Source: Escherichia coli (lineage in GTDB: Bacteria; Pseudomonadota; Gammaproteobacteria; Enterobacterales; Enterobacteriaceae). Taken from it: a DNA stretch of 64,000 nt. The stretch is taken from assembly GCF_003334765.1 (NCBI RefSeq), contig NZ_QOWT01000001.1; one strand, 5' to 3'. A program made the position numbers and the translations under genes. Under the pieces are notes generated by a model. It saw only the letters and a program-made list of their open reading frames with translations. It made no database searches and had not been told where the DNA came from. Below, one piece after another: positions 55,760 through 56,749 of this stretch. Position 1 is the first letter of the stretch. Every line of letters starts with the position of its first letter.

Positions 55760-55904
55760 TACAAGTCTCAGAAATTTGTTGCTTCTACGGCAGGACTGCC
55801 GGGAAGTGATGCGCATCACGATAAACCAATCGCTGCTGATTTCAAGTGCGAGGTGTGTCACACCTCGCCGGGTGGTTAGCATGATAACAAAAAAATAAGC
55901 TAAT

Positions 55905-55922
55905 GCACTAGTTCTCTAGTAC
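55905..55922. promoter_or_regulatory. TrpR operator of the aroH promoter
   Basis: Reverse complement GTACTAGAGAACTAGTGC is a near-perfect ACTAG-containing palindrome typical of Trp repressor operators; it overlaps the 3' end of ppsR. Confidence 0.7.
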
Positions 55923-56749
55923 ATTCGGCGACTAAGGCCCATGATATCGAGGATCTTGGTGGCAATCTCTTCTACCGAATAATTGGTACTGTTAATCCAC
56001 GGGATCTGATTTTTACGGTACAAGGCTTCCACTTCCGCGACTTCCATCCTGCACTGACGAAGCGAGGCATAGCGACTGTTCTCCCGACGTTCCTCGCGAA
56101 TCGCCGCCAGACGTTCCGGGTCGATAGTCAGGCCGAACAATTTATGCTGAAGCGGTTTGAGCGACGCGGGTAGCACCAGATTATCCATATCGTCGGCAAT
56201 AAAGGGGTAGTTTGCCGCGCGGATACCAAACTGCATTGCCAGATACAGACTGGTGGGGGTTTTACCACAGCGAGAAACACCGAGCAGGATCACCTGAGCC
56301 TGGTCCAGATTGCGCAACGAAATGCCGTCATCGTGGGCGAGGGTGTAATCAATCGCCGCAATGCGCGCATCATATTTATTGAGATTATTAGGGTTAAGGC
56401 CATGGGTACGATGAGCAATCGGCGTTGGATCCAGTTTCATCTCTTGTTGTAGCGGGGCAACCAGCGCCTGAACGATATCCTGGCAAAAGCCTTCACTTTG
56501 CAAGATGATGGCGCGAATCTCCGGCAACACGATGGAGTAGAAGACCAGCGGGCGCACGCCTGTCTGGTGATAAATTGCGTCAATCTGATCCTTCACTGCC
56601 CGTGCACGGCTCTCATTTTCGACAAACGGCAGCGTGATGCTGCTGATAGTGACGGGAAATTGTGACATTACTGCGTGTCCTAATACCTCCGCAGTTATTG
56701 CCGTACCATCAGAAATATAAAAAACGTGGCGATCAACAGCATTATCCAT
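55916..56749 (-). CDS. ppsR: PEP synthetase regulatory protein (bifunctional kinase/pyrophosphorylase)
   Basis: 277 aa (ydiA); P-loop GVSRCGKT. Confidence 0.93.

Follow-up and report, generated by a model that had tools for sequence, protein, structure and literature searches.

The 18-bp palindrome in which the ppsR gene of Escherichia coli ends is very probably the TrpR operator of the neighbouring gene aroH, laid over the -35 region of the aroH promoter aroHp1 (P1) and taking its left half from the end of ppsR; aroH carries a second promoter, aroHp2 (P2), which sequence comparison suggests is the ancestral one, the P1 module being a family-specific element. TrpR charged with tryptophan would block RNA polymerase at P1 by steric occlusion, as the position of the operator over the -35 region of a promoter starting at about 55877 and the established TrpR literature both suggest, and P2, which starts at 55810, would lie beyond the reach of such occlusion. 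The operator and P1 would then represent an addition made in the Enterobacteriaceae, one that reused the terminal Met-Tyr-stop of ppsR. Both aroH promoters, the operator and the repressor that binds it were established before this analysis, and the evolutionary detail reported here is a modest addition to that knowledge.

Locus and operator

The stretch of E. coli DNA that was analysed (hereafter the window) is 64 kb long, and the features of aroH and ppsR described below all lie on its minus strand, in the order ppsR then aroH with an intergenic gap of 156 nt. The 401 bases around the operator match many E. coli chromosomes at 100% identity, and the same 401-base region was found, annotated as ppsR followed by aroH, in 5,423 of 5,426 complete E. 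coli genomes. Window positions convert to the MG1655 chromosome as 1844194 minus the window coordinate, which places ppsR at 1787445-1788278 and aroH at 1788435-1789481. In the K-12-derived strain ER1709, aroH is annotated as a frameshifted pseudogene (L001 1842-2887). The genes and the operator are as follows.

56749..55916, minus strand: ppsR coding sequence, 277 aa, C-terminus ...SRRMY (RefSeq E. coli annotation)
55921-55919, minus strand: ppsR Tyr277 codon TAC; the G of Met276 is 55922
55918-55916, minus strand: ppsR stop codon TAG
54713..55759, minus strand: aroH coding sequence, Trp-sensitive DAHP synthase, 348 aa; ATG at 55759, MNRTDEL...
55922..55905, minus strand: TrpR operator of aroH, predicted from sequence, GTACTAGAGAACTAGTGC, GNACT-N8-AGTNC with both CTAG cores
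55916..55922, minus strand: overlap of operator and ppsR; operator positions 1-7, from the G that closes the Met276 codon through TAC (Tyr277) to the end of the TAG stop

On the plus strand, positions 55905-55922 read GCACTAGTTCTCTAGTAC, of which GTACTAGAGAACTAGTGC is the reverse complement; the minus-strand context at the end of ppsR is ...CGA ATG TAC TAG AGAACTAGTGC ATTAGCTTATTTTTTTGTTATCATGCTAACC... The operator is an imperfect palindrome with 7-nt arms, GTACTAG and CTAGTGC, that differ by one mismatch and flank a 4-nt centre. An earlier note on this DNA had described the palindrome as overlapping the last codons and stop of ppsR, and this is so: the gene supplies 7 of the 18 operator bases, among them the left pentamer GTACT and the CTAG core of that half, both in full. 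The same note had embedded the aroH promoter in the 3' end of ppsR (55883-55930), which is overstated. Only the left half-site, GTACT(AG), is made of the last base of Met276, Tyr277 and the stop; the right half, in which the -35 region lies, is intergenic, as are the spacer and the -10 element, all downstream of the stop codon.

A search with the ideal TrpR operator GTACTAGTTAACTAGTAC, allowing up to 3 mismatches, returned a single match in the 64 kb, at 55922..55905 (0.01 expected), where 15 of 18 bases agree with the ideal and both CTAG cores are present. The minimal pattern GNACT-N8-AGTNC likewise matched only here (GTACT...AGTGC; 0.46 expected), and these lone matches, set against their expectations, mark the site as more than a chance operator. 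TrpR binding is the subject, at least in part, of Kumamoto 1987 and Klig 1988. The hallmarks of a TrpR operator that can be read from DNA are found at this site, namely inverted GNACT half-sites, CTAG cores and overlap with a core promoter element of a tryptophan-related gene, and so is the expected pattern of conservation across species, with recognition positions 1-6 and 12-16 invariant or nearly so and positions 8-10 variable. The identification of the palindrome as the aroH operator, proposed in the earlier note, thus gains support from the lone match to the ideal operator, from its placement over the aroHp1 -35 and from its conservation in 76 of 80 loci (see below).

The two aroH promoters

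55881..55889, minus strand: aroHp1 extended -10, TGT TATCAT (TGTTATCAT); hexamer at 55886-55881
55876..55877, minus strand: aroHp1 transcription start, MG1655 1788317/8; 118-nt leader
55818..55845, minus strand: aroHp2 core promoter; -35 TTGAAA at 55845-55840, 16-bp spacer, -10 TATCGT at 55823-55818
55810, minus strand: aroHp2 transcription start, MG1655 1788384; 51-nt leader (TSS-seq and guide positions)

A CRISPR-activation preprint (10.1101/2022.07.14.500123) targeted aroHp1 and aroHp2 as separate promoters and gave guide-to-start distances; its four guides, mapped onto the window, place the aroHp1 start at 55877/55876 and the aroHp2 start at 55810/55811, the former being back-calculated from the guide positions -70 and -91 in Table S3. 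With the start derived from these published guide positions, the operator covers approximately -45 to -28 of aroHp1. The extended -10 of this promoter is a good one; its -35, which lies within the right operator half, is poor (2-3 of 6 bases), and a consensus promoter scan did not call aroHp1; the position of its TAnnAT relative to the operator is kept across genera. The case for aroHp1 activity rests on database-derived coordinates, and the database-derived start falls just 3-4 nt past TATCAT, which is unusually close, such that the real P1 start may lie a few bases farther downstream. Within the P1 -10, an ATG at 55880-55882 (minus strand) is in the aroH frame and precedes 41 codons without a stop; it was considered as the aroH start, which would extend the open reading frame to 389 aa, and was rejected because it sits inside the -10 and upstream of both transcription starts, and because annotations and homologues all begin MNRTDEL. 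Translation from this ATG probably never occurs.

With regard to P2, the promoter scan of the region called only TTGAAA-16-TATCGT, with a start 7 nt downstream of the hexamer. Kim et al. 2012 (PMC3415461), who enriched triphosphate 5' ends from MG1655 under one condition (M9 glucose, mid-log), give in their supplement a single start for aroH, at U00096.2 position 1786408, supported by 414 reads and leaving a 5' UTR of 51 nt; the sequence upstream of it is ...CACTTGAAATCAGCAGCGATTGGTTTATCGTGATGCGCA, and it corresponds to window position 55810. Between the ppsR starts (7-8 reads) and 55810 their M9 glucose table has no start, and so none at about 55877. The earlier note had named a transcription start elsewhere as the observation that would count against its promoter; the published start at 55810 adds a promoter and does not remove P1. 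What that reading missed, and what makes it incomplete, is this second, CRP-associated and apparently ancestral promoter, and its estimate of about 140 nt for the aroH leader has to give way to two lengths, 118 nt for transcripts that start at P1 and 51 nt for those that start at P2. The two starts are 67 bp apart, with aroHp2 downstream, and the operator centre lies about 104 bp upstream of the aroHp2 start; at that distance bound TrpR should not directly occlude P2. Two promoters are named in the title of Hudson, Rellos and Davidson 1991.

The leader between the promoters and aroH carries several further elements.

55847..55868, minus strand: 10-bp perfect inverted repeat in the P1 leader, GCGAGGTGTGaCACACCTCGC
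55847-55862, minus strand: predicted CRP site, TGCGAGGTGTGTCACA, within the 10-bp inverted repeat; under a published ChIP-seq peak
55805..55820, minus strand: predicted CRP site, palindrome CGTGATGCGCATCACT across the P2 start; under the same published ChIP-seq peak
55788..55801, minus strand: leader hairpin, CGGCA-GUCC-UGCCG, few compensatory changes

In ETEC H10407, Haycocks et al. 2015 assigned a high-confidence CRP ChIP-seq peak to aroH, with two predicted sites beneath it; these are exactly 55805-55820 and 55847-55862, in the leader and P2 region. Their sequences, cGTGA-N6-TCACt and TGTGA-N6-TCGCA, match the listed sites exactly and conform to the TGTGA-N6-TCACA pattern. The palindrome at 55805-55820 has near-invariant arms and a variable centre across Enterobacterales. 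The two sites centre at about -2.5 (55805-55820) and -44.5 (55847-55862) relative to the P2 start; these are not classical activating positions, which sets aroH apart from classical CRP-activated promoters.

An Rfam scan of 55600-56100 on both strands (E <= 1) gave no match, which indicates that the conserved aroH leader is not a described RNA family, and RNAalifold on 77 sequences returned just the operator arms, without covariation, and a 4-bp leader hairpin with few compensatory changes. Judged from these alignments, the case for a riboswitch or attenuator in the leader is not convincing. Loci of the Citrobacter freundii group (L008, L009, L011-L014, L017) show a deletion of about 30 nt, aligned to approximately 55846-55870, in which both the inverted repeat of the leader and TTGAAA, the -35 of P2, are lost and which leaves TGATATTGT, an extended -10; the sequence suggests that this extended -10 compensates for the lost -35.

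Conservation across Enterobacterales

The comparison set comprised 80 Enterobacteriaceae loci, obtained by scanning a genome collection with PpsR (about 30 genera, at least 90% protein identity), and 6 outgroup loci. The motif GTACTA[AG]nnn[AG]CTAGTnC occurs in the same place in 76 of the 80 Enterobacteriaceae loci, its first base being the third of the Met276 codon, 4 nt ahead of the stop; Klebsiella, too, has it at the same ppsR overlap. Position counts were made on 77 distinct sequences, in three of which (L080-L082) the script mis-located the operator. Apart from these three, there is no variation at operator positions 4 and 12-15 and very little at 1-3, 5, 6 and 16, and positions 8-10 vary freely; the intergenic right half reads ACTAGT[A/G/T][C/T], its CTAG being invariant in every located operator (74 of the 77 distinct sequences). 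The pattern is the same within E. coli: five divergent genomes sampled out of the 5,423 differ only at silent sites of ppsR, at position 9 of the operator and immediately 3' of it. The left half in most genera is GTACTAA (core CTAA) and not GTACTAG, and among loci in which operator and gene overlap, ppsR terminates with TAG in Escherichia, Franconibacter and the Citrobacter freundii group and with TAA in all others; TGA does not occur.

No operator was found in the outgroups Erwinia, Pantoea, Mixta, Dickeya, Serratia and Yersinia, though all keep the gene order ppsA-ppsR-aroH; their ppsR genes end in ATG TAT TAA, ATG TAC TGA, ATG TTC TGA or ATG TTT TAA. This absence agrees with a comparative regulon study (PMC5343134), according to which TrpR represses aroH and the interaction is restricted to few close Enterobacterales. 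By contrast with P1, the block from TTGAAA to the Shine-Dalgarno sequence (approximately 55846..55762, minus strand) is much better conserved, being kept in Enterobacteriaceae, Erwinia, Pantoea, Mixta, Serratia and Yersinia and not in Dickeya. Since the P2 block is thus retained by genera that have no operator, P2 looks like the ancestral aroH promoter of Enterobacterales, and the operator/P1 module like a later, Enterobacteriaceae-specific addition upstream of it.

A few Enterobacteriaceae loci depart from the common arrangement. An insertion separates the ppsR stop from the operator in a metagenome-assembled genome (L034), where ppsR ends ATG TAT TAG, and in Kosakonia sacchari (L041), and in both the operator and the -10 remain with aroH. 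At L071 the operator lies 20 nt beyond the ppsR stop, with both CTAG cores present, and at L037, where ppsR is one codon longer (ATG TAT CAA TAA), the operator no longer has its left half-site. On its opposite strand, the Kosakonia sacchari insert (L041 3335-4945) codes for two small peptides that are rich in glycine and have double-glycine-type leaders (MKELTAHEMQYASGG... and MKQLSNDEMQAVSGAG...), which from their sequences look microcin-like; a short remnant related to this insert is present in L034.

Operator and ppsR codons

The earlier note held that the operator is constrained by the coding sequence of its neighbour and proposed comparing the conservation of the ppsR C-terminus with that of the operator. 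The last Tyr codon of ppsR is TAC in 77 of 77 distinct sequences in which the operator overlaps the gene, although these sequences are related by descent and do not count as 77 independent events; the other 8 Tyr codons of ppsR all mix TAT and TAC. Of 77 conserved ppsR codons with two-fold degeneracy, only 2, those for Gln90 and for Tyr277 at the end, lack synonymous variation among the 77 distinct sequences. Where the operator is absent or displaced, the last codon may be TAT, TTC or TTT and the stop TGA occurs, which, taken with the uniform TAC, argues that the operator constrains the silent third base and the stop codon of ppsR. In Enterobacterales, PpsR ends RRM[YF], and the C-terminal tail is variable among distant PpsR homologues; the shared ending within the order points to the Met and the aromatic residue as constraints at the protein level, and to the third base and stop as lying outside them.

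The note's view of the constraint consequently survives in part. Met-Tyr-stop by itself supplies the G, T, A and T of the half-site GTACT, so that coding sequence does contribute these operator bases; for the most part the influence seems to run in the reverse direction, the invariant TAC and the absence of TGA in the comparison indicating that the operator keeps C as the third base in codon 277 and allows only TAA or TAG as stop. The same data indicate that the coding sequence pre-adapted the site for its use as an operator, with no conflict between the two functions. A fuller scenario, which we offer tentatively and with slightly more doubt than confidence, is that P1 was an add-on from the ancestor of the Enterobacteriaceae, in which a ppsR end ATG TAY TAA (read GTACTAA) was exapted as a half-site; the operator, not the protein, would since then have fixed the silent base and barred TGA, the change to TAG, the rare amber stop, would complete CTAG and may tighten repression, and the Escherichia 18-mer may also serve as a ppsR terminator. 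If this is true, a single 18-mer in Escherichia would encode the end of ppsR, including its stop codon, and also act as operator, as -35 region and as the stem of a terminator.

The end of ppsR offers a clean natural case of a transcription-factor site that places a synonymous site and the stop choice of a neighbouring gene under purifying selection, for which the outgroups and the natural experiments provided by the insertions act as controls. In practical terms, recoding of ppsR, whether by synonymous changes or by replacing the amber TAG with TAA as in recoded E. coli, changes position 7 of the aroH operator.

Comparison with other regulated promoters

TrpR operators in E. coli are found at trpEDCBA, trpR, aroH, mtr and aroL, and the present site is the aroH member of this set itself. 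Like the others, it has inverted GNACT half-sites, CTAG cores and overlap with a sigma-70 promoter element of a tryptophan-pathway gene. The trp operator lies over the -10 and the trpR operator over the start site, the aroH operator over the -35. Unlike the other TrpR operators, that of aroH has a left half-site composed of another gene's coding sequence and stop codon. Repression of aroH by TrpR has been regarded as weak in the older literature, and a TrpR-dependent add-on at the level of the family, situated upstream of an older, order-wide promoter, could help explain this. With the two promoters that the title of Hudson 1991 names, aroH also resembles systems with tandem promoters of which one is repressor-controlled, the starts here being 67 bp apart and the operator lying over the upstream one only.

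Alternative explanations

55888..55929, minus strand: terminator-like hairpin and T-run, the operator arms followed by UUAUUUUUUU

That the palindrome is, wholly or additionally, an intrinsic terminator of ppsR, with its U-run doubling as the P1 spacer, seems unlikely to us, although the end of ppsR in E. coli does have a predicted hairpin and a following U-run of the kind that intrinsic terminators place at gene 3' ends. A terminator scan flags the palindrome (10 pairs, a loop of 4 and a T-rich tail), and the RNA hairpin of the operator arms, with -13.7 kcal/mol and z = -4.4, runs directly into UUAUUUUUUU. The stem differs from those of intrinsic terminators, however, in being A/T-rich, with 3 of 10 pairs G-C, and neither arm varies, so that there are no compensatory changes; the variation falls in the centre, as at a site bound by protein. 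The T-run, moreover, is conserved only in Escherichia, Salmonella and Citrobacter, and the palindrome stays with aroH, not with ppsR, where an insertion splits the two genes (L034, L041). A conserved-structure test accordingly gave no covariation, a U-tract lost in most genera and an element that follows aroH, and the entries listed in the Term-seq tables of Adams 2021 include no 3' end at the stop of ppsR, an absence that the weak expression of the gene (7-8 TSS reads) could account for. A secondary, lineage-limited role as terminator in Escherichia may, by its sequence, nevertheless accompany that as operator.

We consider it less likely still that P2 is the sole functional aroH promoter, P1 being negligible and the palindrome of little regulatory weight. 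The lone aroH start of Kim 2012 (55810, with none near 55877), the much better hexamers of P2 and its order-wide conservation all favour such a view, but the TSS data come from a single condition, aroHp1 and aroHp2 are both recognised promoters, the title of Hudson 1991 speaks of two promoters, and repression of aroH by TrpR is stated in the literature (PMC5343134). An operator and a -10 kept at a fixed distance through about 80 Enterobacteriaceae species would also be hard to explain without function. That same fixed distance speaks against the palindrome being a mere chance product of the C-terminal codons of ppsR, for which there is next to no probability left: Met-Tyr-stop (GTAYTRR) is indeed already half-site-like and is carried by outgroups without the operator, but the full 18-mer match (0.01 expected per window) and the intergenic right half, with its CTAG invariant in every located operator (74 of 77), together with the other conservation data rule chance out as far as sequence analysis can go.

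In the same Term-seq data, as far as the listed entries extend, Adams et al. 2021 report a strong 3' end antisense to ppsR at approximately window position 56546, plus strand (MG1655 1787648, minus; score 24585.7), which points to antisense transcription within ppsR, on the upstream side of the ppsA promoter.
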